Source: Candidatus Limnocylindrales bacterium (GTDB lineage: Bacteria; Chloroflexota; Limnocylindria; Limnocylindrales; CSP1-4). Taken from it: a stretch of 61,180 nt of DNA. Position 1 is the stretch's first letter; the number at the start of each line of letters is the position of its first letter. The notes under the pieces were generated by a model, which saw only the letters and a list, made by a program, of their open reading frames with translations, was not told the origin of the DNA and did no database searches. The translations under genes were made by a program, and so were the position numbers. Location of the stretch: contig DASXTH010000072.1 in assembly GCA_036505555.1 (NCBI GenBank), positions 1-61,180 of the forward strand. The letters are read 5' to 3'. Of the stretch, positions 14,677 through 47,346 are shown piece by piece.

Positions 14677-17600
14677 TCAGGGCGTCTCGCGCTTCGTCGT
14701 CCGGCGCGGCTTCCGAGCCGGCTTCGAGGGTGGCGGCGGCGCCACCGTTCCGAGCAGGCGATTGACGTCCTCGCGGAGGGCCCGCAACTCCCGGACCTCC
14801 GCTTCGAGCGCGGCGACCCGCTCGCCATCGCCCGGGGCCCGCTGCGCCTGACGGAGCTCGGCGACCTGGCCACGCAAGTCGGCCAGTTCTTCGTCTCGAT
14901 CATGCACGGCGTTCACCAGCGCCCCGACGTCGGCATCCGCCGACGCCGTCAGAGCACTGCTCGGCCGACCGATCGAGTAGTAGCTCACGGCACCACCCGA
15001 TTCGAACAGGGTCACCTCATCGCCTGATCGCGGGGAGCGGATCAGCCCGAGCAGATCCCCGATGAGGGCGAGCGGATCGTCGGTCCTCTCGGCGGCTCGG
15101 CGAACGGAGATTCCCTGCTCGGTGAGGCGCTTGTCGACCTGGTCTGTCGGCCGGCCGACGACATTCCCGACGCGGAAGCCGGGATCGGCCGGGCCGCGGC
15201 CCAGCGAGCGTCGGGCCGTGTCAGCGACCATTCGGCCGGCCACGTTGGCCCGCGTCCATGCGTCGTGGATCAACGCGCCGAAGTCAGTGCTCTGGGCCAG
15301 GTCGACGTTCGACCGCCCGGTCGAGTAGCGGTATTTCGGCGCCTCGCGGGCGGCGTCCGGGTCACGCTCCGGCGGCTCATACCGACCGAAGAGATCGGGT
15401 AGCACCATGCAACAGAACTCCTCGACGACCCGCTGCACGAGCGGCATGACCGGAACCACCGACAGCCAATAGTCGATCGTGGGGAAGCTCTTCACATATC
15501 GCCGCCGCGAGAAGTTGCAGACCTTGTAGACCTGGCCGTCGCGAATGTTGATCGAGCCAAGGTAGATCCGCTCTCCGCCGGCGCACGCGGGGCAGGCAAC
15601 CATCAGCTCGTCGCACAGGCAGTCCTTGAGGTACTGGATGAGGCCTGCCACGAGGTCGCGGAACGCGAGGAGGATCTGCCGTCGATACTCGGCGAGCTCA
15701 TCGAGCGGGAACCGGTATTCCGGCTCGAGGACCCGGTCGGGGAGGACCGTGATCGTGTCGCTCCAGTAGTTCAGCACGTAGGCAAACCCGGATTCCTCGT
15801 TCGCCGCCCCGGACACCGGGCCGACCTGCACGGGCAGCTCGTAGTTGGCGACCACCTTGTGGCCTTCGAGCGAGATCGCGGTGACGTTGCAGTCGTCCTC
15901 GTTCACGACGAGCAAGACGCCGGTCGGCTCGTACGGCACGAGCTTGACCGGTCCATCACCGATCTCGATGTTGGCGCGCTGAGATCCGGTCAGGCCGTCG
16001 AAGGCGATTACGTGACGGGTCCCGATCCCGGCCGGGCCCGCGACCACGTACACCGTCCCGCCGTCCCCGGCACGCGGCGCCACCGCGAGATCATCGCTGC
16101 CCTCGGGCACCTCGACGATCGGCCCGAACGTGGCCGGCGTCCCGATCGTGAAGCTCACCAGGCGGGTGTACTCCGGAACCGGGTTGCCCTCGTCGGTGCC
16201 GACCGCGGTCGCGTAGCCGCGGCCTTCGTCGGTCAGGACGAGATGACCGGACGCCCGGAACTCGAGCACCGGAGGCATGCTCGGGTCGACGGCCGTTGGA
16301 TCGATCTGGAACAGGCCGCGCCGGGCACCGATTGCGTACACCTGCTCGGGATCCGCACGAGTGGTCGCCAGCGAGAGGAGCTCGACATCGCAGATCGTCA
16401 CGAGCTCGCCCCAGTCGACCCCGTCGTCCCTGACCCGCCCGGCCCGGAAGAGCGTGTTCTGGCCGTTCTTCGTCGGGGCGATGACATAGACCCGACGGCC
16501 GTCCGGCGAGAAGGCCACATCGGTGATCGGCCCGGCGCCGGAATCCGGCTCGGCGTCGTCGGCGACGACCGTCCCGGAGATGGGTGCCAGCCGCTGGAGG
16601 ACCACCGGCTCCTGGAGGTCGTATCGGTTCAGCCCGCTCGACGGGTGGATCGGATTGATCCCGCCGCCGACCGTCCAGACCTCGCGCTTGCCGGGTCGGA
16701 CGCGGATCCGCTGGTGATGGTCCGACGCGAAGATCGTATCCATCCCCGGGAACAGATCGGAATACTCAGGAAACGGCGTCGCCCCGTCGAACATCGCGCA
16801 GAACGTCTCGCTCTCCAGGAGCTTGCGAAGCTCGACGTAGAAGCCACGCATGATCTCGTGCTCGCGACCCGAGAGGTAGATCGTCTGGCTGGCCTTCGGG
16901 TTGAGGATCTGGGCGATGAGGGACGCGAGGATGGCCTGGCGCTCCCCGATCCGGCCGCGGCGCTGGGTTTCCGTTCCGAGCTGATCCCGGACGAATGTCT
17001 CGATCGGCGCGATGCACTCCTCGTACACCCGGTTCCAGAAATCCCCGGCCAGCGGGTTCTTCCGTTTGTCCCAGCCCGGGTCGTAGAGCTCGACGTGGAA
17101 CTCGCGACCTCGCACGACATCGTTCGTCATGAACAACGACAAGTCGCCGCGACCATCGATGACCACGCCGTCGTTCGTCATCTGGTCCAGGACGTCGAAC
17201 GACTCGGTCTCGTCGATGTTGACGTCGTTTCCGTCGCAGTCGATCGCGTAGCCGGAACCGACCGAGATCGTTCGGCGGTCGCCCTCCTTGGCGTCGGGAC
17301 CGCACTGGACGCGGAGGCCGCACACGATCCCCCAGCCATGGAGGTGCTTCTTGTGGTGGCGGAGCGTGCTGCCTTCGCAGAGGACGTCGATCGCGTCCTG
17401 GACCGTCTGCGCGCCGGGGATCGCGCACGCCTCGTTATCGAACGAGACGTCGTCCGCGGCGATCATCGTCAGCGACGGGAAGGGCTCGCGGCAGTCGTGG
17501 ACCGCGGTCGCGGCGCCGCCCTCGGTCTGGACGAGGGCGAGTGGCGCGTAGTGATGGACGATTCCGTCGGGCGGACGCGAAAGCGGGCGCTCCAGGGAGT

Positions 17601-21341: not shown

Positions 21342-24082
21342 CGTCGTCTCCCGAGGACGATTCCGGTCGGCGCACCGTTGATCGTCACCAGCTGTGCGGG
21401 CAGGAGCCCCGCCGGCCCGCGCCGGCCCGGCATCGAGCGAAGGATCGGCGCGTCCGGCCTGGTCTCGCCGGTGAACCAGATCCCATCGGAATCGAGATCC
21501 ACCGCCAGCACGCCCGGGACCGCCTGGATCGCCGCGCCGACCTCGCTGACCGAGACACGCTGGGCGAGCCCGCGGCGAGCGAACGAGAACGTGTCGAGCA
21601 GCCTCGAGCGGACGTCGGCGAGGACCCGCGTCTCGTCGTAGCCATCGACGACGAAGACCCCGGCCTCGAGGTCGAACGTGCGGAGCTCGCACGGGATGAT
21701 CCGCACCGGCAGGTGACCGTCGCTCTTGGCGCGGATCTCCGCGGCCAGGTTGCGGATCGTCGGGATCGGCGCGGCCGCGGCGCCGTCGACGCCGGCGATG
21801 GTCAGGAGGATGACTCGGCGTCGCCCCTCCCAGACCCAGCGAGCCTCGCTCTTGGCGATGCCGGCGAAGGATCGGGCCAGGTTCGCGCAATCGTCGAGGG
21901 TGACGACCCGATCGAAGGTCTGGACCGTCCGGGGGGCGTTCGTGCGGGCCGCATCGCGGGTCTCTGGGTCGGCGCCACCGGACGTCGGAAGCGGGTTCGA
22001 TACGCTTCTCGCCCCGAGCGGGCGCGTCATCAGCAGCGACAGCTGGCCCGCCGCAACGTTTCCGACGGCCCCGATCCCGACGCGGTAGGTGGCCCGGACG
22101 TTCTCGACCCCGGACGGCAGCCGCGCCCCGAGCCGGCCGTCCCCGAAGGCGATCGTGGCGCTGCCATCGTCGGCGATCCGGGTCACGTAGCGCCGATCGC
22201 GGGGCCCGAGCTCGTCCAGCCCGGGTGCCGGCTCCCAGGTCACGCTGTCGACCTCGAGCTCGAGCGTACTTGCCGCGCCGCCCGTGGTCGGTGCCGGGAC
22301 GAACGTCAGCGGCTTCTGCTTGAGCGTGAAGGCCTGGAAGGGACGGGAGCCGTCGCCGCTGCCGAGGACCTCGTCCTTCGTGTCGCCGTGGGTCGACATG
22401 GCGACATTCGCGAGCACCACGGTTGCCGCCCGGTCGAACGCGATCGACAGCGGCTCGGCAAACTGGATCGTTGCTCGACCGGGCTGGTCCGGCACTGGGC
22501 TGATCAGCTCGACGACCCTCGCCTCGGCGACGACCTCTGCGTCGGTTGGCGCGGCGATCGGGAGGACGTCCGGATCCCCAACCGGGCTGGACATGGTGCC
22601 GGTGGCGCCGCCAGCCGTTCGGACCGGCCACGTCCGGATCGACCCGGCGATCGTGGCCGGCCCGGTGACGACCACCACGTCGCGCGGGGCAAGACGCACG
22701 GGGCCCGCGGCCGTGACCACCGACGGCCGGGAGCCCTCCACGACCTCCAGGCGAGCGCGCGGTCCGCGAACGATCACGCTCCGGCCGACGGCAAACCCGT
22801 CGAGCGGATCCTCGACCTCGACCGTTCGCCCATCGACCGGATCGAACCGCGGAACGGCCGCGAGGCCCAGCTCTTCGCTGTCGATGTACACGACCGTGTC
22901 GCGGACGTGGGCGTTGAAGATCTCGTTCAGCTTCTCGCCCTCGAGGACGATCCGGGTCGTCTTCGCACTGAGCGTGAACCCGGTCCGGGCGTCGTCGGCG
23001 ATCGCCGCCGCGCCGAGCCTCGGGGCAGGCCGGTACAGCTCGGCGTAGCCCGGCCGCTGCAGGACGATCCAGCCGCCGGGTTGGACGCGCGGATAGATGG
23101 CGTCGAGGAAGATCGTCCGATCCGGGTCCGGCTGGTCGGCGGCGATGGCGTCGAGCTTCAGGTTCGGCCAGTCGCCACCCCGCGTCCCGGCGCGAGCGAC
23201 CCGCTCCCGGATGGCGAGTTGCAGGGTCGCCCAGTCGGGCGCGGCGGCGCCGAACAGGGCCGCCCGCTGGCGGAACGCGTAACAGCGGACCTCCTCGGTG
23301 GCGGGCTTGACCCAGCGGCCCGGACCGCGATACCCGAGCCCGCGCTGCCATGCGACGCGGGTGACCCCGCGAGATGCGTCCGGCTCGACGGTCGTCAACT
23401 GGCGCATGTCCCAGGCCTCGCTCGCCGCGCTGTGGACGCGCTCCCGCCCAACGAACAGGATCGCGTCGCCGGGGCGAAGGTTCGTCGCGATGCCCTCGAG
23501 CCACGCCTCCGTGTCCCGATCCTTGGGAGTCCGCCGGTCCGCCGACTGGACCCGGATCTTGTTCCAGGCGGGCCGCGCCTCGATCGTCTCGTCGGTCTGG
23601 AAGGTCTGCGGCAGCTCGTCCTGGCCCGGCACGCTCTGGACCTTGACGCCCTTCTCGATCGAGACGCGAGCGGGAGCTCCCGGTGCGGTCTCCACCTCGA
23701 ACGCCAGGGGGCCGCTCGAGGCCACGCCGGGCCGCGGTTGGTAGCCGACCGTCGCGGCGAGCTCGTACACCGATCGTCGCTCGGTTGCCGTCCGGAGGAA
23801 GCCTTCGTTGGCGATCCGTTCTTCGTAGAAGGTCAGGACGTCGAGCACGGTCGACCAGGCGTCCACGAGCGCGACCGACGGGTCGTCGTCGCTGCGGGCG
23901 GTCAGCGTCCGGAGCTCCGGCTGTGACGCGAACCGGGCGAGCATGGCTGCGCGGAAGCGCCCGTGCGTCCCGACGCGATAGGCGAGCGCAGACAGGCCGG
24001 GTGGGTTGTCGATCGGAGCCACGGCGCCGCCCGGCGCGCTGCAGCAGCCGCACTCCGGCAGGAGCGCCTCGAGGGTCGTCAT
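21338..24082 (-). CDS. Baseplate J (gp6/gpJ)-like protein, paralog 2
   Basis: ATG at residue 171 of ORF 21338..24592, with an ATGA overlap with the upstream gene. DDPSVALVDAWSTVLDVLTFYEERIANEGFLRTATERRSVYELAATVGYQPRPG fits the baseplate-J N-terminal pattern. Confidence 0.8.
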   Translation of the reverse strand: MTTLEALLPECGCCSAPGGAVAPIDNPPGLSALAYRVGTHGRFRAAMLARFASQPELRTLTARSDDDPSVALVDAWSTVLDVLTFYEERIANEGFLRTATERRSVYELAATVGYQPRPGVASSGPLAFEVETAPGAPARVSIEKGVKVQSVPGQDELPQTFQTDETIEARPAWNKIRVQSADRRTPKDRDTEAWLEGIATNLRPGDAILFVGRERVHSAASEAWDMRQLTTVEPDASRGVTRVAWQRGLGYRGPGRWVKPATEEVRCYAFRQRAALFGAAAPDWATLQLAIRERVARAGTRGGDWPNLKLDAIAADQPDPDRTIFLDAIYPRVQPGGWIVLQRPGYAELYRPAPRLGAAAIADDARTGFTLSAKTTRIVLEGEKLNEIFNAHVRDTVVYIDSEELGLAAVPRFDPVDGRTVEVEDPLDGFAVGRSVIVRGPRARLEVVEGSRPSVVTAAGPVRLAPRDVVVVTGPATIAGSIRTWPVRTAGGATGTMSSPVGDPDVLPIAAPTDAEVVAEARVVELISPVPDQPGRATIQFAEPLSIAFDRAATVVLANVAMSTHGDTKDEVLGSGDGSRPFQAFTLKQKPLTFVPAPTTGGAASTLELEVDSVTWEPAPGLDELGPRDRRYVTRIADDGSATIAFGDGRLGARLPSGVENVRATYRVGIGAVGNVAAGQLSLLMTRPLGARSVSNPLPTSGGADPETRDAARTNAPRTVQTFDRVVTLDDCANLARSFAGIAKSEARWVWEGRRRVILLTIAGVDGAAAAPIPTIRNLAAEIRAKSDGHLPVRIIPCELRTFDLEAGVFVVDGYDETRVLADVRSRLLDTFSFARRGLAQRVSVSEVGAAIQAVPGVLAVDLDSDGIWFTGETRPDAPILRSMPGRRGPAGLLPAQLVTINGAPTGIVLGRRR

Positions 24083-38650: not shown

Positions 38651-38967
38651 AGGAGGCCCTCGGCGGCGCGCCGCACCGCAGCGTCGACGGCGCCGGCGAT
38701 CCCGGTGCCGACCATCGAGGAATGTTGGGCGCCAGAACCGAGGTCCAGGCGCGTGCGGACAGCGTCCAGCGCCACACCGGCTGGCGGGGCGGCGTTGCCA
38801 AACGTCGCGAGCCTCGCTCGCAGCTCCGTCTCCACGGCCCGACCGACGACGTGGCCGTCGACCGTACCCAGGCCGTTGAGGACCAGCCGGTCGATCTCGA
38901 CCGATACGACCGTGGGGTGACGCCCGGGGACACCACGGCGCCTATCGCGACGGCCGATCAGGCCCAC
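38647..38967 (-). CDS. Small conserved-looking hypothetical protein (106 aa) linking the ATPase gene to the cargo genes
   Basis: GTG start with GGAGG 6 nt upstream, overlapping the ATPase 3' end by 10 nt. Its stop overlaps the next start. The frame is GC3-rich and carries no known motif. Confidence 0.5.
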   Translation of the reverse strand: MGLIGRRDRRRGVPGRHPTVVSVEIDRLVLNGLGTVDGHVVGRAVETELRARLATFGNAAPPAGVALDAVRTRLDLGSGAQHSSMVGTGIAGAVDAAVRRAAEGLL

Positions 38968-40949
38968 CCCGCCACCTCCGTCTCGGTCAGCGTCCGCTCC
39001 AGCTTCGCGTACTCCGTTCGGGTCGCGCGGAGCAGATGGGCCATGCCGATCGGCCGGCCGGCCTCGGCGGCCAGGAACGCGGCGTTCACCGCGATGTTCC
39101 GGATGTTGCCGCCGGCGACGTTGAGCCGCGCGAGTCGTGCCGCTTCCACGCCGTCCGTGGGCGCAGCCGGCGGGAACGCTCGCCGCCAGATCTCCGCCCG
39201 CGCCGCCTCGTCCGGGAACGGGAAGTGAACCGTGAAGCGGATCCGCCGGAGGAACGCCGGGTCGATGCTCTCCTTCAGGTTCGTCGTGAGGATCGCGAGG
39301 CCACGGTAGGCCTCCATGCGCTGCAGCAGGTAGCCGACTTCAATGTTCGCGTAGCGGTCGTGGCTGTCCTTGACCTCGCTGCGCCTGCCGAAGAGCGCGT
39401 CGGCCTCGTCGAAGAGCAGGATCGCCCCGCCGTCCTCCGCGGCGTCGAAGACCCGGCGCAGGTTCTTCTCGGTCTCGCCGATGTACTTGCTGACCACCTG
39501 ACTCAGGTCGATCCGGTACAGGTCGAGGCGGAGCTCGGTCGCGAGGACCTCGGCCGCGAGCGTCTTGCCGGTCCCGCTCGCGCCGACGAACAGCGCGGCG
39601 ATCCCGAGACCCCTGGCGCTCGTCGCGCCAAACCCCCAGCGGTCGTACACGAGCGTCCGGTGACGGACCTGGAGGGCCAGCTCGCGGAGGGTCTCGAGAT
39701 GGCCGACGGGCAGGACCAAATCCGACCAGCCCGCTCGAGCGTCCACACGCTGGGCCAGATCGTCCATGCGCGGCCGCGCCTGGCCACGGCACGCGTCCCA
39801 CAGCGCGCGGCCCAGGGCCGTCGGATCGGCGCCGCCCACCTCCCCCGCGGCCGCGACCTCGGCCAAGGCTTCGACGCTCGCCTCCCGGATCCCGCGGATC
39901 CCGAGGTCGAACTGCGAGGCGAGGCGATCGCCCTGGCCGTCGAGCCGATCGGGGCCGACCAGCGACTGCCACACCTCGAGCTGCTCGCCGCTGGTCGGCT
40001 TTGCCACGTCAAGCGCGAGCATCGGGCGTGCGCGCGTCGGTCGGCGATCGCGGATCAGGAGGATCAGGGCCGACGACAGTCCCTCGACGACTTGGGAGAT
40101 GGCGGCATCGCGAGCCGAGTCGTGACCCTCGACGCCGTCGCAGTCCAGGATGAGGGCGGTTCCAGCGAGCGCAGCCTCCCGTTCGCAGAGGCGGACGAGG
40201 GCGTCCAGCTCGCGGGGTTCGACGGGCAGGGACTCGGCCCGGACGATGGCCAGGCGCATCCCGAGCAGGATCGCGGCGACCTCCGCGACGAGGCGCTTGC
40301 TCGAGCCGTCCGGTCCGCACAGCTCGATGACCGGCGGCGGTTCTCCGGGCGGCCGATCCGTCCAGGCATGGACGATGCGGTGGGCGAGCTGCTCGTGGGA
40401 GGGCACGACGTCGAGCTCGGACGCACGTTGGGACAGCGGCTCGAGGTACCCGGCCAGGCGGTCGTCGACCGCGTCGATCCCGACGAGGTGATGGAGCACG
40501 CGCTCGTCGATCCGCAGCGCGCTTGTCGCGAGCGGCCCGGCCGCGGGCTCGACGAGCCGCCAGCGGCGCAGCGGCGCATTCGGCGCGAGCGCGCTCCAGT
40601 GGGCATCGGGCAGCGCCGCCAGGGCGAGGCTGAAGGTCGCGTGGGCCCGGCCCGGATCGCCCTGGGCCCGAGCGCACAACTCGCCAACGGACGCGTCGAG
40701 CTCGACACCGGCGCACAGAACCAGCACGTCGCGCTCGAAGGCCGACAGACCGAAGGCCGCGACGACCTGGTCGAGCGCGGCGGGGCGATCGGAGAGCGCC
40801 GGGTCCGCCGCCACATCGGTTCGCGGGACGTCCGGCCCTGCCGAACCCCCGGACGCGTGGCGCTCAACCGCCGACCGGACCCCGCCGAGGGCCGCCTCGA
40901 GGCGCGCCTTGTTGGCCGCCGTCCACGCGTCGGCCTCGACGCCGATCAT
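38958..40949 (-). CDS. AAA+ ATPase of the eCIS Afp15 type
   Basis: 663 aa with a long N-terminal region and a single C-terminal AAA module. Walker A is GASGTGKTLAAEVLA and Walker B is ILLFDEADALFG. The SRH-like region is ILTTNLKESIDPAFLRRIRF. ATGA overlap with the DUF4255 gene. Confidence 0.9.
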   Translation of the reverse strand: MIGVEADAWTAANKARLEAALGGVRSAVERHASGGSAGPDVPRTDVAADPALSDRPAALDQVVAAFGLSAFERDVLVLCAGVELDASVGELCARAQGDPGRAHATFSLALAALPDAHWSALAPNAPLRRWRLVEPAAGPLATSALRIDERVLHHLVGIDAVDDRLAGYLEPLSQRASELDVVPSHEQLAHRIVHAWTDRPPGEPPPVIELCGPDGSSKRLVAEVAAILLGMRLAIVRAESLPVEPRELDALVRLCEREAALAGTALILDCDGVEGHDSARDAAISQVVEGLSSALILLIRDRRPTRARPMLALDVAKPTSGEQLEVWQSLVGPDRLDGQGDRLASQFDLGIRGIREASVEALAEVAAAGEVGGADPTALGRALWDACRGQARPRMDDLAQRVDARAGWSDLVLPVGHLETLRELALQVRHRTLVYDRWGFGATSARGLGIAALFVGASGTGKTLAAEVLATELRLDLYRIDLSQVVSKYIGETEKNLRRVFDAAEDGGAILLFDEADALFGRRSEVKDSHDRYANIEVGYLLQRMEAYRGLAILTTNLKESIDPAFLRRIRFTVHFPFPDEAARAEIWRRAFPPAAPTDGVEAARLARLNVAGGNIRNIAVNAAFLAAEAGRPIGMAHLLRATRTEYAKLERTLTETEVAGWA

Positions 40950-42175
40950 GGGACAGTGACAAGCGGATCCGTGATCACACCCGCTCCGTTCCGCACGAGG
41001 ACGCTGTCGGCTTGGTCGACGACCACCTGAACGGCGTGGCTCCCGGCCGCAACCCCGGCCATCGGGAACGACAGGCTCGTCGTGTCGCCGGATCGAGGCG
41101 GCCCGCTGATCACGTGTCGCCGCTGACCGGTCGCGGGGTCGAGGAGCAGGACATCGACGCGTTGGGACGCCGAGACCGTGACATCCGTCGTCGCGGTGAG
41201 GACCGGTCCGGCCGCCACCGCGACTGCGGCGATCGTCGGATGGAGAGCGAAGGTCGCGACGTTCGACTCGACTCCGTCGTGCTCGATGGGAGGAATGCCC
41301 AACAACGTCCGATGGACGACCTGGACGGTGGCCATCCCCGCCCGAAGCTCGGCAATCGGGACGGTCCCAAGGTCGAAGGGGATCCGGGCGTTCGTCCCGG
41401 CGGCGATCGGTCGATCGGACCCCGCGAGCCGGACGCGGGTCACGTCGCCGACCAATTCGCTCCCGAGGATGTCGATCGTGGTCGTTGCCGTGATCGGGGC
41501 CCTCGGATCGGGCGATGCCACGACCGCGGCGATGAGCGGGCGGCCCAGCCGCACCACGTGGACGTCGCGCTCGAGGACGGGCAACGGCGTCACCGTCGCC
41601 ACGTCCGGCTCGACGAGGACGACCGACGCCTGGTAGGCGACGGACAGCGCGTATGGGGTCTGGAAGAACACCGACCAGAGCTTGGACAGCTCCTCGAGGT
41701 TCATCGGCAGCGGGACGAACTTCACCCGCTCAACCTGATCGCCGAGGTCGGTTGCGGCCAGCGACGGGTGGACAGGCGGGCTGGCCGTCGCGGCGGTCTT
41801 GACGGCGGCGATCAGCTGGGGCGTCAGGAACGGCTGGGCGTGGAGCGTCCGGACCACGCTGCCGAGAAGCCGCTGCGGTTCGAGCTCCTCGTCGGCGCCA
41901 CTGAACGTGAACAGGTAATGCAGATCCAGCGCCGCCACCGGCCGCTGGAGGAGATCGCCTCCCGACGATCGGGTCGGGAGATCGGCGTTCCGCAGTGCCA
42001 CGTTCGGAACGACCTGATAGAGGTAGACGTTCACCGTCGGGGAGGACGTCCCGTTCGTCGAGGTCTCGGGTCGGTCGGTCGTCACGGTGGCGCCCGGGAC
42101 ATCGGCCCCGGCGGTCGCCTGAAGCAATCGATGGAGCGCGGCGGTGACCGTTGCCACGGCGAGGAAATTGCTCAT
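40946..42175 (-). CDS. DUF4255 (Pvc16/Afp16-like) tail terminator/cap protein with C-terminal Ig-like extension
   Basis: MSNFLAVATVTAALHRLLQ...VNVYLYQVVPNVALRNADLP is the characteristic DUF4255 N-terminus. ATGA overlap with the upstream gene. Confidence 0.8.
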   Translation of the reverse strand: MSNFLAVATVTAALHRLLQATAGADVPGATVTTDRPETSTNGTSSPTVNVYLYQVVPNVALRNADLPTRSSGGDLLQRPVAALDLHYLFTFSGADEELEPQRLLGSVVRTLHAQPFLTPQLIAAVKTAATASPPVHPSLAATDLGDQVERVKFVPLPMNLEELSKLWSVFFQTPYALSVAYQASVVLVEPDVATVTPLPVLERDVHVVRLGRPLIAAVVASPDPRAPITATTTIDILGSELVGDVTRVRLAGSDRPIAAGTNARIPFDLGTVPIAELRAGMATVQVVHRTLLGIPPIEHDGVESNVATFALHPTIAAVAVAAGPVLTATTDVTVSASQRVDVLLLDPATGQRRHVISGPPRSGDTTSLSFPMAGVAAGSHAVQVVVDQADSVLVRNGAGVITDPLVTVP

Positions 42176-43308
42176 CGCCCGGTTCCGTTCCGGGCGCGGA
42201 GATAGTCGTCGAGCGACGGGGCGGTCGATCGCCGGGTGGCTTCCGATCGCGGCCGGGGTGCCGGAGCGGTCATCGCGCGAACCTCGATCCGTCCGATCGA
42301 GACGCGCACGATCGGCCCCGCTCGCGTCGATTCGGTCGGGCGCCAGCCCTCGTCATCGAGGATGGCCCGGGTCGGGGTGACGCTGGAGAGCTGGTGCCGG
42401 ACCGTGGCGACGCCGATCCGTGACGGAATCTCGTCGGGCTCGTCGCGGGCGGGTTCCGATGGGGGGCCCTCCTCGACGGAGGGAGTCCTCCGCCTGGGCG
42501 GTGGGACGCGCGCGGAACGGGCGGCGGGCGGAGGCACGTCGGCGCGGGGCGTCTGCGGGACGGAGACGGCGGCCGCGCCGGACGTGGCGGCGGCGTTGGC
42601 TGCGATGGCGGTCGGGCCGACCGGAGCGGACGGGCCCGAGATCGGTGGAGACGGCTCGGCAGCCGGCAGCGTTCGGGCCGCGCGTTCGATCGAGGGCCTG
42701 CCGGGCGGATCCGGGAGGACGCGGCGTCGACCCACCGGGCCAGCAGGCCGAGCCGGCCTCGGCGGAGGCGCGTTGACGAAGGCGCTCGGGAGCACATCCG
42801 CGCGGGGGGAGGGCGTCGGTGCGCGGGCGGCGCTTCGTTCCGCGCTCCTCCCGGCCGCAGGCGCCGGCCCGGCGCGCGGGGCGACCTCGGTGGCGGCGGC
42901 CGGCGCCTCGATCCGCCGTGGCGGCGACGGACCGCGCGATCGGGTCGTGCGGGACCGCGCGATCGGGTCGGCAGGTTCAATGACGATTCCGGCCGGTGTC
43001 GGCTCTTGCCGACGCTCGATCGATGCGTCGAGGGCCGCTGGCCGGACCGGCGCCGCCAGCCGATCGGCGATTCGATCCCGCGTCGCCGAGCGAATCATTG
43101 GCACGACGCGAGGTGGCCCTTCTGGGGCCTCGGGCATCGGCGTGCGGTGCGTCACATCGGCAACGGGCGCGGCCCGGTCCGCTGACGCGTCTGACGCGAA
43201 GGCGTCCGGACGGTGCCGAGCCGGCTCGTACCGGCCGAGGGTCCGCGGCCGGAGCATCCCGCCGGGATCGAGTGCGTGATCGATCAGACGGGACAACACG
43301 CTATTCAT
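42172..43308 (-). CDS. Pro/Ala/Arg-rich low-complexity protein in the tape-measure (Afp14) position
   Basis: ATG at residue 17 of ORF 42172..43356, with GAGG upstream. The protein is largely low complexity. The ordered C-terminus is GPIVRVSIGRIEVRA...SLDDYLRAR. Assignment is positional only. Confidence 0.55.
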   Translation of the reverse strand: MNSVLSRLIDHALDPGGMLRPRTLGRYEPARHRPDAFASDASADRAAPVADVTHRTPMPEAPEGPPRVVPMIRSATRDRIADRLAAPVRPAALDASIERRQEPTPAGIVIEPADPIARSRTTRSRGPSPPRRIEAPAAATEVAPRAGPAPAAGRSAERSAARAPTPSPRADVLPSAFVNAPPPRPARPAGPVGRRRVLPDPPGRPSIERAARTLPAAEPSPPISGPSAPVGPTAIAANAAATSGAAAVSVPQTPRADVPPPAARSARVPPPRRRTPSVEEGPPSEPARDEPDEIPSRIGVATVRHQLSSVTPTRAILDDEGWRPTESTRAGPIVRVSIGRIEVRAMTAPAPRPRSEATRRSTAPSLDDYLRARNGTGR

Positions 43309-43316: not shown

Positions 43317-44051
43317 TCACTCGGCCGCGAGCTCGACGTAGAGCTGGCGACGCCACGGGCTCAGCTCCAGGACGTCCGACTCACGCCAGCCGTAGGCCGC
43401 AGCCAGGCCCGCGACGTCGGCGGCAATCCGCCGGGCGGCTGCCGAAACCTCGGTCCACAGGAAGGCTGGCACGTCGACCCACGTCTCCCACGCGTGCTCG
43501 CAGGCCGGGCACGCGACGCTCAGGCTGAGGTCGAGTCCCGGGTCGGCGAGCGCGATGGCCCGTTCCACGGCGGCCTCCAGATCCGGACCGATCGTGGCCG
43601 CCGCGGCGTCGACGAGCAACCGGTTGATGAGCGTCCTGCGGGCGGCCTCCGCTGCCGCGCCGGTCGAGGCCGCAGCCACCTCGAGCGCGGCCACGAGGTC
43701 ATCCGTCGTCGGCAGCCTGACCCGGACGGTCCGCCTCCCGGCGGTGACCTCGATCGGGGCGACTGCGGCGTCATCCCCGGGATCGACCTGTAGTCGAGCC
43801 GCATCGAGCTCCAGCTCGAGGGCGTCGCCGCAGCTCGGACACGAGGTGACGGCGACGAGCCTTCGGCCGAACGTCGTGGCCCGCAGCTCGAGGAGGCTGG
43901 CATCGCGACGGCCGATCGGGACCGTGCCGAGGCTCGCGTCCGGCAGGTCGGGCCGGGCGTAGGCGAGGAGCAGCAGGGCGCGCTCGCGGGCATCGACCGA
44001 CGCCCCGTGCTCCCAGATGTCGAGGAGATCCGCCGAGGTCAGCGCCTCCAT
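43317..44051 (-). CDS. Conserved hypothetical with two CxxC pairs, in the Afp6 / tail-assembly-chaperone position
   Basis: ATG at residue 31 of ORF 43317..44141, 5 nt after the tube stop. The CxxC pairs are CPSC (aa 81-84) and CPAC (aa 190-193). I recall similar proteins next to tube genes in high-GC eCIS loci. Confidence 0.6.
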   Translation of the reverse strand: MEALTSADLLDIWEHGASVDARERALLLLAYARPDLPDASLGTVPIGRRDASLLELRATTFGRRLVAVTSCPSCGDALELELDAARLQVDPGDDAAVAPIEVTAGRRTVRVRLPTTDDLVAALEVAAASTGAAAEAARRTLINRLLVDAAAATIGPDLEAAVERAIALADPGLDLSLSVACPACEHAWETWVDVPAFLWTEVSAAARRIAADVAGLAAAYGWRESDVLELSPWRRQLYVELAAE

Positions 44052-44055
44052 GGCG

Positions 44056-44574
44056 CTAGGCGAACTGCGTTTCCAGCGGCTCGTCGACGCCCTCGTCGCG
44101 CTCGAAGCCCTCGTTCTCGAGCTTGATGTGCTGGATCGCAACGGCGTTCGCGTTCGCGTCGAGATCCGGCAACGCCTGGTACTCGGAGACCCAGCACCGG
44201 AAGACGTTGTACGCGATCACCTGTTGACCGGCCTCGTTGTAGACCTCGATCCTGATGTCCTTGCGGAAATCCAGGAGCGAGACCTCGCTGCCCAGGCCCG
44301 CCTGGAAGTTCCAGACCTTCCGCGCCCACGCCTCGAAGTCGAGGTCGTGGGTCACGCCACGCTCGAGGGTGATTGCCTCGTACTCGGTTCGGCCCGGGCT
44401 CTTCCGGCTGGTGCTCGGGTCGCCGCCCTCGCGATGCTTGACGACCTCGGTCGTCCGTTTCAGGCCTCCCACCTTGCTGACGCCGGCGACGGGCTTGCCG
44501 TCCCACCAGACTCGGAACTTGAAATTCTTGTACGGGTCGAAACGGGTCAGGGCATTGACCGTGAACTGCGCCAT
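44056..44574 (-). CDS. Contractile tail tube protein (T4 gp19-like / Afp1-type)
   Basis: 172 aa. FDPYKNFKFRVWWDGKPVAGVSKVGGLKRTTEVVKHREGGDPSTSRKSPGRTEYEAITLERGV matches the gp19 tube family pattern. Confidence 0.9.
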   Translation of the reverse strand: MAQFTVNALTRFDPYKNFKFRVWWDGKPVAGVSKVGGLKRTTEVVKHREGGDPSTSRKSPGRTEYEAITLERGVTHDLDFEAWARKVWNFQAGLGSEVSLLDFRKDIRIEVYNEAGQQVIAYNVFRCWVSEYQALPDLDANANAVAIQHIKLENEGFERDEGVDEPLETQFA

Positions 44575-44593: not shown

Positions 44594-46513
44594 CTACGTC
44601 TCGATCTTTCCGGCGATCTGCTGGATCTGGATGATCACGAACTCGGCCGGCTTCAGCGGCGCGAAGCCCACGAGGATGTTCACGACCCCCAGGTTGCGGT
44701 CGGTCTGTGTGGTCGTGTCGCCGTCGCACTTGACGAAGTACGCCTCCTTCGGGGTCGTGCCGGCGAACGCGCCCTGCCGGAAGAGGCTGTGCATGAAGCT
44801 GCCGACGTTCAGCCGGAGCCGCGCCCAGAGCGGCTCGTCGTTCGGCTCGAAGACCGCCCACTTCGTCCCGCGGAACAGGCTCTCCTCGATGAAGAGGGCA
44901 GTTCGCCGGATCGGGATGTACTTCCACTCGGATGCGAGCCGGTCGGCACCATCCAGCGTTCGGGCTCCCCAGCAGACCGTCCCGTACACCGGGAACGTCC
45001 GGAGGTTGTTGATCCCGAGCGGATTGAGCGTCCCGTTCTGATCGTCGGTGAGCGTCGTCTCGAGGGAGCGGACGCCGCGAAGGACGGCTTCGGTGCCGGC
45101 GGGCGCCTTCCAGACTCCGCGCTCGGCGTCCGTGCGGGCGTAGAGCCCGGCGACCGTCCCGCTCGATGGCACGAGCCGGTCGCGGAACCCGTTGACCGGG
45201 TCGGGGATGTTCGGCCGCGGGAAGTAGAGGGCGGCGTTCTTGTGGCGGAAGCCGGCGTTCCCGTCGAGCCAGTCCTTGATCTCCTGGACCGTGTCCCGGG
45301 TTGCGGCCTGCTGCGGAACGTCGAGGATGAAGAAGGCTCGACGCGACTCGCAGTACGTCTCTGCCAGGGGGATGAACGCAGCCGCCTCGTTGTCGACGAG
45401 GTTCATCGTGTCCGGCACGCACAGGATGTTGAAGATGTCGACGGTGTCGAGCGCGTAGATCCCGGTTCGCCCGACCGCGTCGCCGAGGAGCGCCGCGCCA
45501 TTTGGCGCGCCACCGTCATTGCCCTGCCGCTGACCGGCCGGAGGACCCGGCGGGACCGCCTGGGCCGCGGAAGCCGTCCCGCCGAGCGAATACGCCTGAA
45601 CGTTGACGACGTCGAGCTTGATGTCGGGGGCGAGGGTCCCACCGAACGTGATGAGGTCGCTGCCGTTGGCGCCACCGGTGACTCTCAGGTTCCGCGTGGT
45701 CGCGGTGCTCGGCTCGGCCGTCACGCGGACGTTGCGGAGGGACGAATCCACGCTCTGGATCAAGGCCTGGAGGAGCGAGGCCAGCCTCGATGCGGTCTCG
45801 TGGCGGGTCGCCCCGAGGGTGAACGTGCCGCCGACGTTCGTCCCGTTGACCACGACCTGCAGCGTCTTGGTGGCCGCCAGCCCGTTTGCGGCCGCGTCGG
45901 TGAGCGCGGTTGACGTCATCGTCCCGGTCTCAGCGACCCGGGCAGTGGGCGATGTCGCCAGGTTCGTCAGCCTGATCAGCGACGAGGAGGAATTGACGAC
46001 GGCCGGCGCGAAGTTCGGGGCCGAGGAGACGAGCCCGAGATTGCGGTAGCTCTCCGACGCGACGGTTCGGCCGCTCGCGTCGACCTCGCGGGCCGTGAGG
46101 TTGAACTGACCGGCCATGGAGGTCTCGTGATCGACATCGATCTGGACACGGTTGCCCCAGACGCCTTCGCTCGCCGCCTCGGCCAGGAGGGCGGCATTGC
46201 CCGCGGTCACGGCGTCGAGCATCGCGATCGCGGCCGCCGCCGGGGTCCCCGAGGCGACCCGCACGACCCAGGCCTCCCGACCGCCGTTCAGGAAGAACTG
46301 GCGGATCGCGTAGCCGACCTCGCTCGACGTGACGAGCGGGCCGAAATTCCGATCGAGGTCGGCGAGGCTGAAGACCTGGATCGGCGTGTTGAGCTTGCCC
46401 TTGGTGAACGAGCCGAGGAACGCCGTGACGGACGTCGAGACCCCGATGATCGTCCGGACTCCGCTCGGCAGCTCCTCGATGTAGACGCCGGGATACGTCG
46501 GTGCAATGGGCAT
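44594..46513 (-). CDS. Contractile tail sheath protein
   Basis: ATG at residue 24 of ORF 44594..46582, with AGGAGG upstream. The N-terminus MPIAPTYPGVYIEELPSG is the canonical sheath start. The C-terminal region NNLRTFPVYGTVCWGARTL is typical. Confidence 0.9.
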   Translation of the reverse strand: MPIAPTYPGVYIEELPSGVRTIIGVSTSVTAFLGSFTKGKLNTPIQVFSLADLDRNFGPLVTSSEVGYAIRQFFLNGGREAWVVRVASGTPAAAAIAMLDAVTAGNAALLAEAASEGVWGNRVQIDVDHETSMAGQFNLTAREVDASGRTVASESYRNLGLVSSAPNFAPAVVNSSSSLIRLTNLATSPTARVAETGTMTSTALTDAAANGLAATKTLQVVVNGTNVGGTFTLGATRHETASRLASLLQALIQSVDSSLRNVRVTAEPSTATTRNLRVTGGANGSDLITFGGTLAPDIKLDVVNVQAYSLGGTASAAQAVPPGPPAGQRQGNDGGAPNGAALLGDAVGRTGIYALDTVDIFNILCVPDTMNLVDNEAAAFIPLAETYCESRRAFFILDVPQQAATRDTVQEIKDWLDGNAGFRHKNAALYFPRPNIPDPVNGFRDRLVPSSGTVAGLYARTDAERGVWKAPAGTEAVLRGVRSLETTLTDDQNGTLNPLGINNLRTFPVYGTVCWGARTLDGADRLASEWKYIPIRRTALFIEESLFRGTKWAVFEPNDEPLWARLRLNVGSFMHSLFRQGAFAGTTPKEAYFVKCDGDTTTQTDRNLGVVNILVGFAPLKPAEFVIIQIQQIAGKIET

Positions 46514-46627
46514 GCCGTCCTCCTGACGGCGCCCGCTCTGGCACCGTCTGCTTCGGCGGAAGGGTGGTCGACGATCCGTCACTGGACCATCACCGGCATG
46601 TCACCGCGATGCGCGTGCGGCCGCCCG

Positions 46628-46656: not shown

Positions 46657-47346
46657 TCAGGCCGACGACGCAACCCCCACGAGCGGGGTCACCAGGGCGG
46701 TCACGGCCGGCGATGGACCCAGCCGGAGCTCGTCGCGCATCAACCGGACGTAGGCCTCGTACTGGCGAATCGCCTCGGCTCGGTTGCCCTCGCGGAGATG
46801 GGCGTTGATCAGGGCGACGTGGCCGCTCTCGTGGAGCGGCTCTTCGGTGATCGCCGCCAAGCCCGCTTCGATCGCACGCCCAAATTCGCCGGCGAGCGTC
46901 AGCATGACGCAGGCTCGTTCGAGGGCGTGCAGCCGGAGCTGGCGGAGACGCTCCCGTTCGATGAGGACCCAGTCGTCGTACCAGTCGGGGAGGAGGTCCC
47001 CGGCGACCGTGAGCTCGTCGATCCGCTCCGTGGCCACATCCCCGTCGCCCGCCATCAGCTGGTGGGACCAGACCGTGAACTCGATGACGTCGACCGCAAC
47101 ATCCTCGCCGAGCGTCAGGTAGTCCCCACTCGTCTCGACGACCCGGACGCCGGCCTGGCGCAGGCGCCAGAGGGCCGAGCGGAGATTGCCCATCGCCCGA
47201 TCCTGCGTTGCATCGAGCCACAGCATCTCGGCGACGTATGGCCGGAGGGATGGTCGATTTCGAAGCGCGACGAATGCGGCCACCCGTTGTGCGCTGAGCG
47301 GGATCCTGATCGGGACCCGCTCACAGGACAGGGAGAAGCCCTGCAT
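46657..47346 (-). CDS. SARP-family transcriptional regulator (OmpR-type winged helix + BTAD)
   Basis: ATG at residue 50 of ORF 46657..47493. The wHTH region is RVAAFVALRNRPSLRPYVAEMLWLD...NLRSALWRLRQAG. The BTAD region is GDLLPDWYDDWVLIERERLRQLRLHALE...GNRAEAIRQYEAYVRLMRDELRLGP. Confidence 0.8.
   Translation of the reverse strand: MQGFSLSCERVPIRIPLSAQRVAAFVALRNRPSLRPYVAEMLWLDATQDRAMGNLRSALWRLRQAGVRVVETSGDYLTLGEDVAVDVIEFTVWSHQLMAGDGDVATERIDELTVAGDLLPDWYDDWVLIERERLRQLRLHALERACVMLTLAGEFGRAIEAGLAAITEEPLHESGHVALINAHLREGNRAEAIRQYEAYVRLMRDELRLGPSPAVTALVTPLVGVASSA

Follow-up and report, generated by a model that had tools for sequence, protein, structure and literature searches.

A predicted class-II-type contractile injection system with a gene-island cargo module in Candidatus Limnocylindrales

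A contractile injection system (CIS) locus occupies positions 14677-47493 of the window, the 61-kb stretch of DNA (61,180 nucleotides) analysed here, which derives from a MAG of Candidatus Limnocylindrales, an uncultured soil Chloroflexota bacterium. All genes lie on the minus strand in the order sheath, tube, gp51-like protein, (Pro-rich protein), cap, AAA+ ATPase and DUF4157 cargo candidates, followed by tube initiator, LysM-like protein, hub, spike, PAAR and gp25, and finally two J paralogues, a gpI-like adaptor and a DUF6519 fibre candidate. Packing is tight, with 4-nt overlaps throughout both structural modules, and GC is uniform across the window. Using curated Pfam/NCBIfam thresholds as the standard for accepted family calls, we obtained calls above threshold for the sheath, gp19 tube, DUF4255/Pvc16 cap, AAA+ ATPase, CIS_tube initiator, BTAD, gpV spike, gp25, two TIGR02243 J paralogues and DUF6519; profiles or homologues alone back the hub, PAAR tip, LysM-like protein and gpI-like adaptor. 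Overall, the locus signal is far above chance. A sequence-only reading had proposed a complete, headless eCIS/PLTS-type locus on a single strand (14677-47346), to be checked by HMM searches for sheath, tube, gp25 and DUF4255; the locus is confirmed at these coordinates, on the minus strand, with all four families above threshold. Left out of its component list were the seven genes between ATPase and tube initiator (29867-38967).

Upstream of the sheath gene lies a SARP-type regulator (46657-47493) carrying a BTAD domain (PF03704, 9.8e-18), which is documented among the 'shell' regulator domains of eCIS (PMC8213781); an alternative start at 47346 was the earlier reader's choice. No OmpR-type wHTH was detected in this protein by Pfam, and its identity is 86% in the related locus L081 and 57% in L083. 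A repeat search returned a candidate SARP box on the minus strand (46578-46606), 62 nt before the ATG of the sheath gene, composed of three heptamers with 11-nt spacing (CGGTGAC atgc CGGTGAT ggtc CAGTGAC). The pattern has one match in the window versus 0 in 100 shuffles. In L081, L082 and L083 hardly any changes are seen between the repeats and the start codon of the sheath gene, while sequence further upstream diverges. The BTAD regulator may bind this candidate box.

The contractile sheath (Cis2/Afp2-like, 640 aa, 44594-46516) has the N-terminus APTYPGVYIEE and matches Phage_sheath_1 (PF04984, 8e-11) and sheath_1C (PF17482, 5.7e-9). In the PDB it scores highest against the Streptomyces CIS sheaths 8bky (276 bits) and 8bl4 (267), then against haloarchaeal 9ezm (251), versus ~150 bits for PVC/Afp and 130 for tCIS (classical range 130-156 bits). 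The gene for the gp19-like inner tube protein (Cis1, 44056-44574; Phage_T4_gp19 PF06841, 2.7e-45) is found in 83/83 related loci, and in 81 of the 83 it is directly followed by a gp51-like gene. Here that gene encodes the CxxC protein (244 aa, 43317-44051) already listed in the sequence-only reading, which can be further identified as a T4 gp51-like baseplate protein of the T4_baseplate family (PF12322, 1e-6, 29.1 bits versus a cutoff of 24.5; phrog_150 'baseplate hub', 4.5e-7). The adjacent Ala/Pro/Arg-rich protein (378 aa from ATG 43308, 42172-43308; 17% Pro, 17.5% Ala, 16% Arg) matched no family in Pfam, NCBIfam or PHROG searches and is a tape measure candidate by position only. Its identity is only 47-50% in relatives that share 93% sheath identity, and its C-terminal ~50 aa are kept in L015 and L002. 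The cap or tail terminator (Pvc16_N = DUF4255, Cis16; 40946-42175; PF14065, 5.6e-48) is followed by a Cis15/Afp15-like AAA+ ATPase (38958-40949; PF00004 8.3e-27, PF22977 2.1e-19) with an N-terminal winged-helix domain (WHD). Alg15, the homologous ATPase of AlgoCIS, mediates loading of cargo (bioRxiv 10.64898/2026.05.27.728243).

Downstream of the island, the second structural module opens with the tube initiator (CIS_tube, Cis5/Cis7-like; 29112-29792; PF19266, 1.9e-7), which is 85-89% identical in L084 and L085. A 99-aa protein in a P2 gpX-like position (28810-29109) gave no direct match, and its orthologue profile is weakly yet consistently LysM-like (CEBiP 0.044, CIS-Sc LysM protein 9gtp_P 0.082, T4 gp53 0.67), as had been proposed; it carries the conserved motif DRLDxxAAxxxGDPxxFWRxCDxN. 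The spike hub (gpD/gp27-like, 371 aa, 27683-28798) is encoded separately from the OB-fold spike. The proposed gpD assignment holds through its orthologue profile, the window protein itself lacking a Pfam match: profile A2 matched VgrG 9rce_F (1.7e-14), AlgoCIS 7aef_q (1.7e-6), tCIS All3320 (7b5h, 3.2e-5) and CIS-Sc 9gtr_q (4.1e-4), the matched portion of these VgrG/Cis8 chains from solved CIS being N-terminal. Consistent values came from phrog_52 tail (8.7e-10) and from the L012 orthologue (Phage_GPD, 1.2e-4). The spike (gpV/gp5 OB-fold, 27177-27686; Phage_base_V PF04717, 1e-23) precedes a PAAR-like tip (26860-27180), for which the phiKZ PAAR central spike tip 6p1z provides support (E=2.7e-4; PAAR_motif 0.16), whereas the DUF4280 model suggested earlier gave no match even at E<=1. 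Next is a gp25-like baseplate wedge or sheath initiator (119 aa, 26504-26863; GPW_gp25 PF04965, 1.2e-16), whose start at 26863 agrees with 119-aa orthologues of L084 and L085. Two Cis11-like J paralogues follow at 24079-26502 (TIGR02243 1e-84; PF04865 1.6e-4) and 21338-24082 (914 aa; TIGR02243 1.7e-56; PF04865 7.6e-8), the frame of the latter being set by GC3 profile and ATGA overlap. The gpI/Mu Gp48-like baseplate adaptor (774 aa, 19017-21341) has no match of its own, and the earlier gpI call stands on full-length homologues, of which 16/32 match Tail_P2_I and 14/32 match Phage_Mu_Gp48. Its body is beta-rich and possibly a beta-helix (AF2 pLDDT 72.6), with weak fold matches mostly to right-handed beta-helix and tailspike proteins.

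The giant distal protein of the sequence-only reading is present and is identified here as a DUF6519 (eBAP5; PMC12923769) fibre candidate of 1442 aa (14677-19005; PF20129, 2.7e-51), lying downstream of the Tail_P2_I-type adaptor exactly as eCIS fibres are catalogued. Its layout comprises a DUF6519 baseplate anchor, a helical bundle, a seven-bladed beta-propeller, a Cys-rich domain, a coiled-coil hairpin and a basic tail. An AF2 model of residues 600-1442 reached pLDDT 84.7 and pTM 0.72, and the propeller gave matches to WD40, YncE and YVTN with E of ~1e-10 to 1e-12. The protein is of constant length, similar across phyla and unlike a classic trimeric fibre; in L084 it is 64% identical over its full length, with baseplate proteins at 63-66%. 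As it is as conserved as the baseplate, its role could be structural or anchoring within the baseplate and not receptor binding. A K/R-rich tail is found often, not universally, at the end of this family and could bind anionic lipids.

The cargo island fills the gap between ATPase and tube initiator with seven genes (29867-38967, 9.2 kb, ~28% of the locus): a 106-aa ORF, an M35-like metalloprotease, three DUF4157 (eCIS_core) proteins, a papain-like protease and a chagasin. Its content is reshuffled among close relatives, and since loci with 93% sheath identity carry different genes after the ATPase, the island appears swappable. The 106-aa ORF (38647-38967), first in the island, matched no family in Pfam, NCBIfam or PHROG searches and has weak homologues at the same position in L004 and L075. 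The M35/aspzincin-like metalloprotease candidate (37841-38650; PF14521 1.2e-4, under the gathering score) contains HEAGH ... TGDENY, and the cargo islands of L081, L086 and L089 likewise include M35-like genes.

DUF4157 is an established eCIS cargo marker (PMC8213781), and the three proteins bearing it (605-846 aa, without TM segments) share the layout of known tube-lumen cargo, namely a disordered N-terminus, DUF4157 and a variable C-terminus; for AlgoCIS, both this cargo layout and AAA+ dependence have been described (bioRxiv 10.64898/2026.05.27.728243). E1 (35379-37844; PF13699, 7.6e-30), which overlaps the preceding gene by ATGA when read from 37844, combines its disordered N-terminus and DUF4157 with a YkuD L,D-transpeptidase-fold domain (PF03734 9.4e-5, 23.5 bits, at cutoff; catalytic motif SHGCVRL present) and a C15 pyroglutamyl-peptidase-like domain (PF01470, 1.2e-7 in one search and 4.7e-9 in another). 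E2 (32994-35183; PF13699, 3.8e-31) is 33% identical to E1 over ~250 aa from 47 aa before DUF4157; it has no further Pfam match beyond DUF4157 and contains a second HExxH (HEIGH, residue 688) in its C-terminal region. E3 (31155-32972; PF13699, 1.3e-25) likewise has a second HExxH (HEVDH), then a Gly-rich beta-strand C-terminus ending in ...LRF, and in L083 a full-length homologue (52%) immediately precedes the protease gene. Relatives from many phyla keep the same gene order, in which one to three DUF4157 genes separate the ATPase from the tube initiator, and the position recurs in dozens of related loci. Peptidoglycan may be one substrate, as the YkuD domain of at least one cargo protein points to; Tlde1, an effector of L,D-transpeptidase fold, is an antibacterial T6SS toxin (PMC9638812), and the cargo of one relative has an OmpA peptidoglycan-binding domain.

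The papain-family (C1) cysteine protease (30222-31049; PF00112, 1.1e-7) has no signal peptide, retains the catalytic Q/C/H/N (motifs GHCVGFGW, GGHCYLM and QNSWG) and is 94% identical in L083 and 84% in L085. It is followed by a chagasin-family (I42) cysteine-protease inhibitor (29867-30193; PF09394, 1.8e-19), the putative cognate inhibitor or immunity protein of the protease. In 12 related loci the chagasin gene lies 5-61 bp after the protease gene, and while overall identity is just 35-54%, the inhibitor's contact loops (ExPTSGYRW, GGGG and RRxWE) do not vary. The papain-like and M35-like proteases probably travel as further cargo, although the status of the protease/inhibitor pair is uncertain because long contigs that lack CIS genes (L099, L103, L104) carry it too.

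The flanks (14.6 kb and 13.7 kb) carry chromosomal housekeeping genes, including subtilases, MDH, PEPCK, a Cys/Met PLP enzyme and UbiA, together with CBS, MFS, Lgt, sigma/anti-sigma, AsnC, VIT1 and penicillin amidase; all sizeable flank ORFs tested are housekeeping or without family match. Head, terminase, integrase and T6SS membrane genes are absent from locus and flanks throughout the 61-kb window, so the earlier claim of their absence holds inside it. Nor did the window contain tRNAs, Rfam matches, att-like repeats, a holin, an endolysin, or a lysis cassette or other release function. No convincing transmembrane segment is present in any protein of the locus, and therefore neither a CisA-like (Streptomyces) adaptor nor a haloarchaeal-type 6-TM anchor is encoded; homologues of the latter and any other membrane protein are likewise missing from the adjoining genes. 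Judged from its genes, the locus is supported as a headless chromosomal CIS of the eCIS/PLTS superfamily with a complete gene set, and not as a prophage or a T6SS.

The sequence-only reading had left the mode of action open and assumed a 'high-GC Gram-positive-type' host. The latter is wrong, as sheath and fibre proteins identical to those here are on record from the Candidatus Limnocylindrales MAG, which belongs to the phylum Chloroflexota and not to an actinomycete, and the former can be narrowed, given absent cytoplasmic-Streptomyces features and a DUF6519/eBAP5 fibre candidate. On balance we favour, without great confidence, a class-II-type CIS with gene-island cargo that most likely acts extracellularly after release from the producer, because there is no membrane anchor and a fibre candidate is present; other bacteria are the likely target. 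A SARP-type activator would switch on the sheath operon via the triple heptamer repeat. By homology to solved CIS, the baseplate would assemble around a split spike of hub, OB-fold and PAAR tip, with tube and sheath polymerising on the CIS_tube initiator, possibly with the Pro-rich protein as measure, until closed by the DUF4255 cap. By analogy to AlgoCIS, the AAA+ ATPase may aid cargo loading, and DUF4157 neighbours may recruit the papain-like and M35-like proteases as extra cargo, the former silenced inside the producer by chagasin. Beta-propeller fibres held by the gpI-like adaptor would then bind the target surface, and sheath contraction would push spike and enzymes into or onto the target. 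Gene content and order, the homologies and the variability of the cargo are observed directly; expression, particle formation, loading, release and target are all steps that we infer. Against an extracellular mode, the nearest solved sheaths belong to intracellular or membrane-bound systems (8bky/8bl4, 9ezm), a toxin and inhibitor pair also suits a contact-dependent or self-directed mode, and the window offers no release function.

The nearest of these sheaths are those of cytoplasmic Streptomyces CIS, and particles could similarly stay inside, fire under stress and let envelope-directed enzymes kill or lyse the producer in a regulated cell death, which we consider unlikely. The lack of lysis or release genes fits this reading, and a peptidoglycan-directed cargo domain with an inhibitor-held cytoplasmic protease would suit self-lysis. 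CIS-Sc (S. coelicolor/venezuelae, type IId; PMC10066040, PMC12237407) also shares the gp25, J, hub and spike baseplate logic, and neither system has a classic Afp14-type tape measure. However, the cytoplasmic mode goes with a CisA membrane adaptor, TM effectors and no fibre (PMC10066040, PMC12237407), and CIS-Sc further possesses two tube paralogues and a fused Cis8 spike. In contrast, our locus encodes no bitopic membrane protein of CisA type after its baseplate genes and no single-TM effectors like Sco4256-58; it has one gp19 tube gene, split hub and spike, and a fibre candidate, and its host is not a multicellular actinomycete.

Resemblance to the Halogeometricum borinquense CIS (clade IIa; PMC11566945) raises a membrane-anchored, T6SS-like contact weapon, with a baseplate docked under the cytoplasmic membrane, perhaps via the DUF6519 protein with the basic tail at its C-terminus, firing outward into a touching neighbour while chagasin shields sister cells. 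The haloarchaeal sheath ranks within the three best PDB matches, with high similarity, and its locus likewise has two structural subclusters, set apart by ~9 kb in which toxin-immunity pairs lie, as well as secreted DUF4157 effectors and two Cis11 paralogues, mirrored here by the 9.2-kb island, toxin/inhibitor pair and two J paralogues; the lipid binding suggested for the K/R-rich tail would also fit. We nevertheless regard this mode as quite unlikely, given the missing 6-TM anchor or other membrane protein, a basic tail that is not universal in its family, and firing from inside across a cell wall, unprecedented in this lineage; the two systems also differ in the DUF6519 fibre candidate and the walled bacterial host found here. 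A defective prophage tail or R-type tailocin, killing cargo-free by membrane depolarisation with the island as unrelated insertions, would account for the myovirus tail ancestry of all structural genes but is highly improbable, since the DUF4255 cap, AAA+ ATPase and three DUF4157 proteins are eCIS markers absent from prophage tails and pyocins (PMC8213781), the DUF4157 position is identical in dozens of loci, GC is uniform, and the phage, lysis, tRNA and att-like signatures sought above are lacking.

As a phage-tail-like contractile injection system, this locus is a well-preserved further example of a kind known before; the kind itself is not new. The S. davawensis CIS group is reported to span Actinobacteria, Proteobacteria and Chloroflexota (Nagakubo et al. 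2024, PMC11126660) and shares the gene order, with DUF4157 cargo that lies between ATPase and tube initiator/spike genes and associates with tube initiator and spike (PMC11126660). Nothing here resembles Tme, the group's giant ORF of 2247 aa that bears TM helices and an EndA-like nuclease; instead there are three shorter DUF4157 proteins without TM segments plus protease cargo. In the eBAP5/Tail_P2_I-type eCIS subtype, DUF6519 also comes right after the Tail_P2_I adaptor and J genes (PMC12923769). The Levy lab catalogue places eBAP5 mainly in Actinobacteriota, with macroglobulin, pectin-lyase, lectin and hemagglutinin distal domains (PMC12923769), whereas the present protein bears a seven-bladed beta-propeller, coiled coil and basic tail in a Chloroflexota host. 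Compared with AlgoCIS/Afp/PVC, the locus has much lower sheath similarity (130-156 bits), one sheath gene versus three, cargo mid-locus versus at the 3' end and a different fibre type; the cap and AAA+ ATPase pair is shared, and AlgoCIS Cgo1/2 have the same arrangement of disordered N-terminus, DUF4157 and variable C-terminus.

The contractile injection system (CIS) locus comprises 24 co-directional minus-strand genes, running from 47493 to 14677, which were delineated by combining ORF lists, third-position GC frame plots and family searches. GC content is approximately 70% throughout the window, and most long ORFs are therefore shadows; gene calling from GC3 only missed genes of lower GC3 and was superseded by the combined evidence. 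Two frames were discarded along the way, a chimeric 1678-aa ORF (19017-24053) in which a shadow frame runs into the genuine gpI-like gene, and orf151 (14221-14676), which has no start codon, an arginine-rich junk composition and no matches. The 5′ module encodes a BTAD/SARP-type regulator, sheath, gp19 tube, gp51-like CxxC protein, Ala/Pro/Arg-rich protein, DUF4255 cap and AAA+ ATPase. It is followed by a 9.2-kb island (29867-38967) encoding a 106-aa ORF, an M35-like metalloprotease, the three DUF4157 (eCIS_core) proteins E1, E2 and E3, a papain-family protease and a chagasin-family (I42) inhibitor. The 3′ module then provides the CIS_tube initiator, a 99-aa LysM-like protein, a gpD-like hub, gpV spike, PAAR-like tip and gp25, and the locus ends with two TIGR02243/Baseplate_J paralogues, a 774-aa gpI-like protein and a 1442-aa DUF6519 protein. 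Packing is tight, with 4-nt start/stop overlaps across the two structural modules and gaps of at least 70 nt at four sites only: regulator to sheath (140 nt), E1 to E2 (195 nt), E3 to protease (105 nt) and inhibitor to tube initiator (74 nt). Consensus promoter and terminator scans of the window were uninformative at 70% GC.

Family searches upheld the central interpretation of the sequence-only reading, namely a complete, headless eCIS/PLTS-type contractile injection system, known here at the level of its genes. The proposed sheath (PF04984, 8e-11; PF17482, 5.7e-9), gp19-type inner tube (PF06841, 2.7e-45) and tube initiator pass curated thresholds. The paired DUF4255 (Pvc16_N) cap (PF14065, 5.6e-48) and Afp15-type AAA+ ATPase (PF00004, 8.3e-27, with a WHD) are likewise confirmed, and their genes are adjacent with a 4-nt overlap. 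Baseplate calls are equally secure for gp25 (PF04965, 1.2e-16), the two J paralogues (TIGR02243, 1e-84 and 1.7e-56) and the gpV spike (PF04717, 1e-23). The absences reported earlier were also borne out: the sizeable ORFs tested in the flanks (14.6 kb left, 13.7 kb right) are housekeeping genes or have no family match, with no capsid, portal, terminase or replication genes, and the Pfam families of the TssB/C sheath pair, the TssJLM membrane complex and ClpV are absent from all window ORFs tested. A mobile-island reading was rejected, as there is no tRNA, Rfam match or flanking direct repeat, and GC is uniform. Together with the ordinary chromosomal genes on both flanks, these observations leave no sign in the window of the myovirus prophage that had been named as the contrary outcome. 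The earlier component list passed over the whole 9.2-kb island.

For several components the assignment needed further evidence; NCBIfam and PHROGs contributed little for the proteins without assignment. The hub protein itself has no Pfam match and a single-sequence PDB search gave only E=0.54, while a profile built from its orthologues aligns to the N-terminal half of VgrG/Cis8 chains in four solved CIS (1.7e-14 to 4.1e-4), and one orthologue matches Phage_GPD across nearly the whole model, in agreement with the proposed gpD call. Since the hub profile aligns to the N-terminal half of fused chains, the spike is here divided between two genes (27177-28798), a 371-aa gpD/gp27-like hub and a 169-aa gpV OB-fold protein. 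In contrast, CIS-Sc (Streptomyces), tCIS (Anabaena) and AlgoCIS (Algoriphagus) each possess one fused Cis8 of ~580-640 aa. The tip had been described as PAAR-like, with DUF4280 among the models suggested for checking; the PAAR call is supported by a single match (phiKZ PAAR 6p1z, 2.7e-4), and DUF4280 found no support. Matches of the 99-aa protein are weak but consistently LysM. The Ala/Pro/Arg-rich protein is a candidate tape measure by position alone, and evolves fast, with 47-50% identity where the sheath retains 93%.

The gpI-like adaptor (774 aa, 19017-21341) has no direct family match, and PDB searches with either the single sequence or a profile were empty. The gpI assignment is supported through homologues: of those that are full-length, at ~50% identity, half match either Tail_P2_I or Mu Gp48. 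Fold searches of its model against PDB and BFVD gave no significant match, only a beta-helix trend. The adaptor body (19017-20720, residues ~210-774) models as beta-rich, and its weak fold matches, none of them significant, are nearly all right-handed beta-helices, including pectin/alginate lyases and the P22, HK620 and CBA120 tailspikes; the modelled body may thus be tailspike-like.

The "giant distal protein" at the end of the locus is indeed present, and we identify it as a DUF6519 (eBAP5) protein (14677-19005). Its DUF6519/eBAP5 anchor (2.7e-51) lies at the expected position. In the catalogue of eCIS fibre candidates (PMC12923769), eBAP5 (DUF6519) serves as the baseplate anchor; such proteins are encoded 3′ of a Tail_P2_I adaptor, their presumed point of attachment, and the same arrangement is found in the window. 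A single-sequence PDB search of this fibre candidate returned nothing. The distal 843 residues were modelled with a pLDDT of 84.7 and pTM of 0.72 as a helical bundle, a seven-bladed beta-propeller (WD40/YncE/YVTN-like, E ~1e-10 to 1e-12), a Cys-rich domain, a coiled-coil hairpin and a disordered basic tail. This propeller architecture defines a small family of constant length (63 clusters) from Chloroflexota, Actinomycetota and one Bacteroidota isolate; in place of a variable fibre tip, the distal part consists of a conserved beta-propeller and coiled coil. Because the fibre candidate is as conserved as the baseplate, it may be a fixed binding or anchoring module and not a fast-evolving receptor-binding tip. 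C-terminally, the family (14680-14770 here; homologues P0242-P0302) has a conserved coiled coil and, in many members, a tail rich in Lys, Arg, Pro and Thr; the last 30 residues contain a median of 7 K/R versus ~10% overall. Not all members have this tail, which is most pronounced in the closest clade. Such a basic tail may bind an anionic polymer or membrane.

Comparison with 83 related loci placed the system in a lineage. The sheath-tube-gp51-like-cap-ATPase block is nearly universal among them (the gp51-like gene occurs in 81 of 83), and on all contigs of sufficient reach the ATPase gene is followed by one to three DUF4157 genes, succeeded by tube initiator, LysM-like, hub and spike genes. 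Nearest sheath relatives (73-93% identity) are on metagenome contigs from JGI, ENA and Logan assemblies, sheaths of 55-60% identity belong to MAGs of Chloroflexota, Thermoanaerobaculia, Methylomirabilis and others, and Streptomyces, Nostoc and Burkholderia sheaths together match at 41-47% (Streptomyces at 41-45%). The CIS group of Streptomyces davawensis is reported to span Actinobacteria, Proteobacteria and Chloroflexota (PMC11126660). The window shares its synteny, in which the cargo gene that bears DUF4157 is placed after the ATPase and ahead of the tube initiator/spike. The S. davawensis type also has a very long Tme-like ORF, in which an N-terminal DUF4157 is combined with TM helices and a region resembling a tape measure; it is absent here, where the DUF4157 proteins span 605-846 aa; some related loci, L083 among them, carry DUF4157 ORFs of >1000 aa. 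The host is not an actinomycete and not of the high-GC Gram-positive type invoked earlier, but a Candidatus Limnocylindrales MAG of the phylum Chloroflexota, class Limnocylindria, whose records include identical sheath and DUF6519 proteins.

The DUF4157 proteins of the island are predicted cargo. E1 (35379-37844; 7.6e-30), E2 (32994-35183; 3.8e-31) and E3 (31155-32972; 1.3e-25), of ~821-846, 729 and 605 aa respectively, are free of TM helices and share a layout of disorder-prone N-terminus, DUF4157 and variable C-terminal domain, which equals that of the tube-lumen cargo of AlgoCIS. Sequence likeness between E1 and E2 extends ~47 residues N-terminal of DUF4157. E1 includes a YkuD L,D-transpeptidase-fold domain with its catalytic SHGCVRL motif present; an L,D-transpeptidase-fold protein, Tlde1, is a known antibacterial T6SS effector (PMC9638812). 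The C-terminal ~250 aa of E1 (35379-36140) form a C15 pyroglutamyl-peptidase-like domain in which the nucleophile Cys (..CN..) is replaced by Ser (GSYLSNE) and the His motif GHLHVP is kept, so that this domain may be a Ser-nucleophile variant or inactive. Pfam searches with isolated cargo C-terminal fragments, including those of E2 and E3, revealed nothing new. The C-terminal ~155 aa of E3 (31155-31620) are Gly-rich with alternating short beta-strand-like segments and end in ...GSLRF, with some resemblance to a small beta-barrel or pore-forming domain; they match no family and are kept in the L083 homologue. In relatives whose sheath is 93% identical, identity of the structural genes is 77-96% and the genes past the ATPase differ. 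An eCIS_core+OmpA protein in the cargo island of the related locus L081 (10411-12204; OmpA being peptidoglycan-binding) and a PD-(D/E)XK nuclease-like gene 3′ of the fibre gene in L084 (16918-17877) look like further examples of cargo and accessory turnover.

The island closes with a C1 papain-family protease (30222-31049; PF00112, 1.1e-7) that has intact catalytic residues and no signal peptide, and, 28 nt past it, the I42 inhibitor (29867-30193; PF09394, 1.8e-19). Homologous pairs occur in L083, L085, L087-L093, L098, L099, L101 and L102, with a protease-inhibitor spacing of 5-61 nt in 12 related loci. In the window, as in L085 and L089, the pair directly precedes the tube initiator, and in L083, L086 and L097 it lies amid other cargo-island genes. 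It is not exclusive to CIS, as it was also found on three long contigs without CIS genes (L099, L103, L104), and is instead a mobile module recruited by this CIS lineage. Relative to the window copies, the protease is 66-94% identical and the inhibitor only 35-54%, while none of the three chagasin contact loops (NPTTG-, GxGG- and RPW-type) varies across 16 homologues. Diversifying selection on the inhibitor was set aside because of these invariant loops, which make relaxed scaffold constraint the simpler reading. No link between chagasin inhibitors and CIS was found in the literature searched. We tentatively propose, as a possibility that may well prove wrong, that the C1 protease and chagasin-type inhibitor form a true CIS effector/immunity module which, with the YkuD-fold DUF4157 effector, would constitute an antibacterial cell-wall- and protein-degrading weapon delivered by a propeller-tipped variant of the eBAP5 fibre. 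If true, this would be a new cargo class for contractile injection systems and a weapon of abundant uncultured soil Chloroflexota (Limnocylindria).

As judged from gene content, the particle would on balance act extracellularly, a reading to which we lean without great assurance. No holin, endolysin or spanin-like gene is present in the locus, and a release function may be encoded elsewhere. An alternative role in cytoplasmic cell death is unlikely: the closest solved sheaths are those of the cytoplasmic Streptomyces CIS (8BKY/8BL4), with the Afp, PVC, AlgoCIS and tCIS sheaths well behind, but the gene-level markers of the Streptomyces system are missing. CIS-Sc (type IId) encodes a CisA-type bitopic membrane adaptor downstream of its baseplate genes, a spot occupied here by the DUF6519 gene, and it has no fibre and single-TM effectors (Sco4256-58 type), whereas this locus has a fibre candidate and no convincing TM segment in any of its proteins. 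Slightly less likely still is a membrane-docked, contact-dependent role: the next-closest solved sheath is that of the membrane-bound haloarchaeal T6SS-like CIS (IIa, 9EZM), but its conserved 6-TM membrane anchor gene is absent from both the locus and the flanks.

To our knowledge, no CIS has been studied experimentally in Chloroflexota, and S. davawensis provides the only experimentally studied member of this multi-phylum group. With a fibre candidate but no membrane adaptor, the locus would be a useful test case for predicting from gene content whether a class-II CIS acts extracellularly, in the cytoplasm or anchored to a membrane. Cleanly bounded and apparently intact, this CIS comes from the class Limnocylindria, an uncultured Chloroflexota lineage. 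Several of its parts lend themselves to experiment: the 33 kb form one expression unit that includes its regulator and a candidate operator, enzyme domains can be assigned in the three DUF4157 cargo proteins, protease and inhibitor are a candidate effector/immunity pair, and the fibre family has a confident structural model. It fits the described CIS lineage, cargo and fibre concepts, which it extends and does not change; mildly new are the Limnocylindria host, the propeller-type eBAP5 protein, the split spike, the candidate SARP operator and the protease/chagasin module.

The regulator (46657-47493) contains a BTAD domain (9.8e-18), and Pfam gave no match to Trans_reg_C, the N-terminal OmpR-type winged helix. 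BTAD regulators are a known eCIS accessory (PMC8213781). In the 140-nt gap between regulator and sheath genes, three heptamers (CGGTGAC, CGGTGAT and CAGTGAC; 46578-46606, minus strand) recur at 11-nt spacing, 62 nt upstream of the sheath ATG. Such 11-nt spacing is typical of SARP binding sites, and the pattern occurs once in the window versus none in shuffles. Three relatives keep the ~90 nt between the repeats and the sheath start codon almost unchanged, and the DNA further upstream diverges; one of these relatives has a regulator of only 57% identity and unrelated upstream DNA. The repeat region is a candidate SARP operator together with the promoter/5′UTR.

Beyond the locus, the next chromosomal gene past the DUF6519 gene is a convergent UbiA gene, and flanking genes are not common to relatives, whose available flanks are short. 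Two genes on the same strand, 34 kb apart, enclose the CIS locus: one for a Cys/Met-metabolism PLP enzyme of the cystathionine gamma-lyase/synthase type (11920-13182), the other for a cystathionine beta-synthase (PALP+CBS, 47613-49187). Transsulfuration genes of this kind are often neighbours, and their separation around the CIS would point to an old insertion, although neither a repeat nor a tRNA scar was found and the flanks of relatives differ. A cluster of protease genes unrelated to the CIS (609-7570) comprises two S8 subtilases in tandem, both large (848 and 1143 aa) and with PA and Fn3-like domains, and after them a trypsin-like protease gene. Two unusual fusions were also observed, an MFS transporter with a C-terminal cyclic-nucleotide-binding domain (49063-51345) and a VIT1 iron transporter whose N-terminal region bears a weak, sub-threshold likeness to rubrerythrin (56063-57919).
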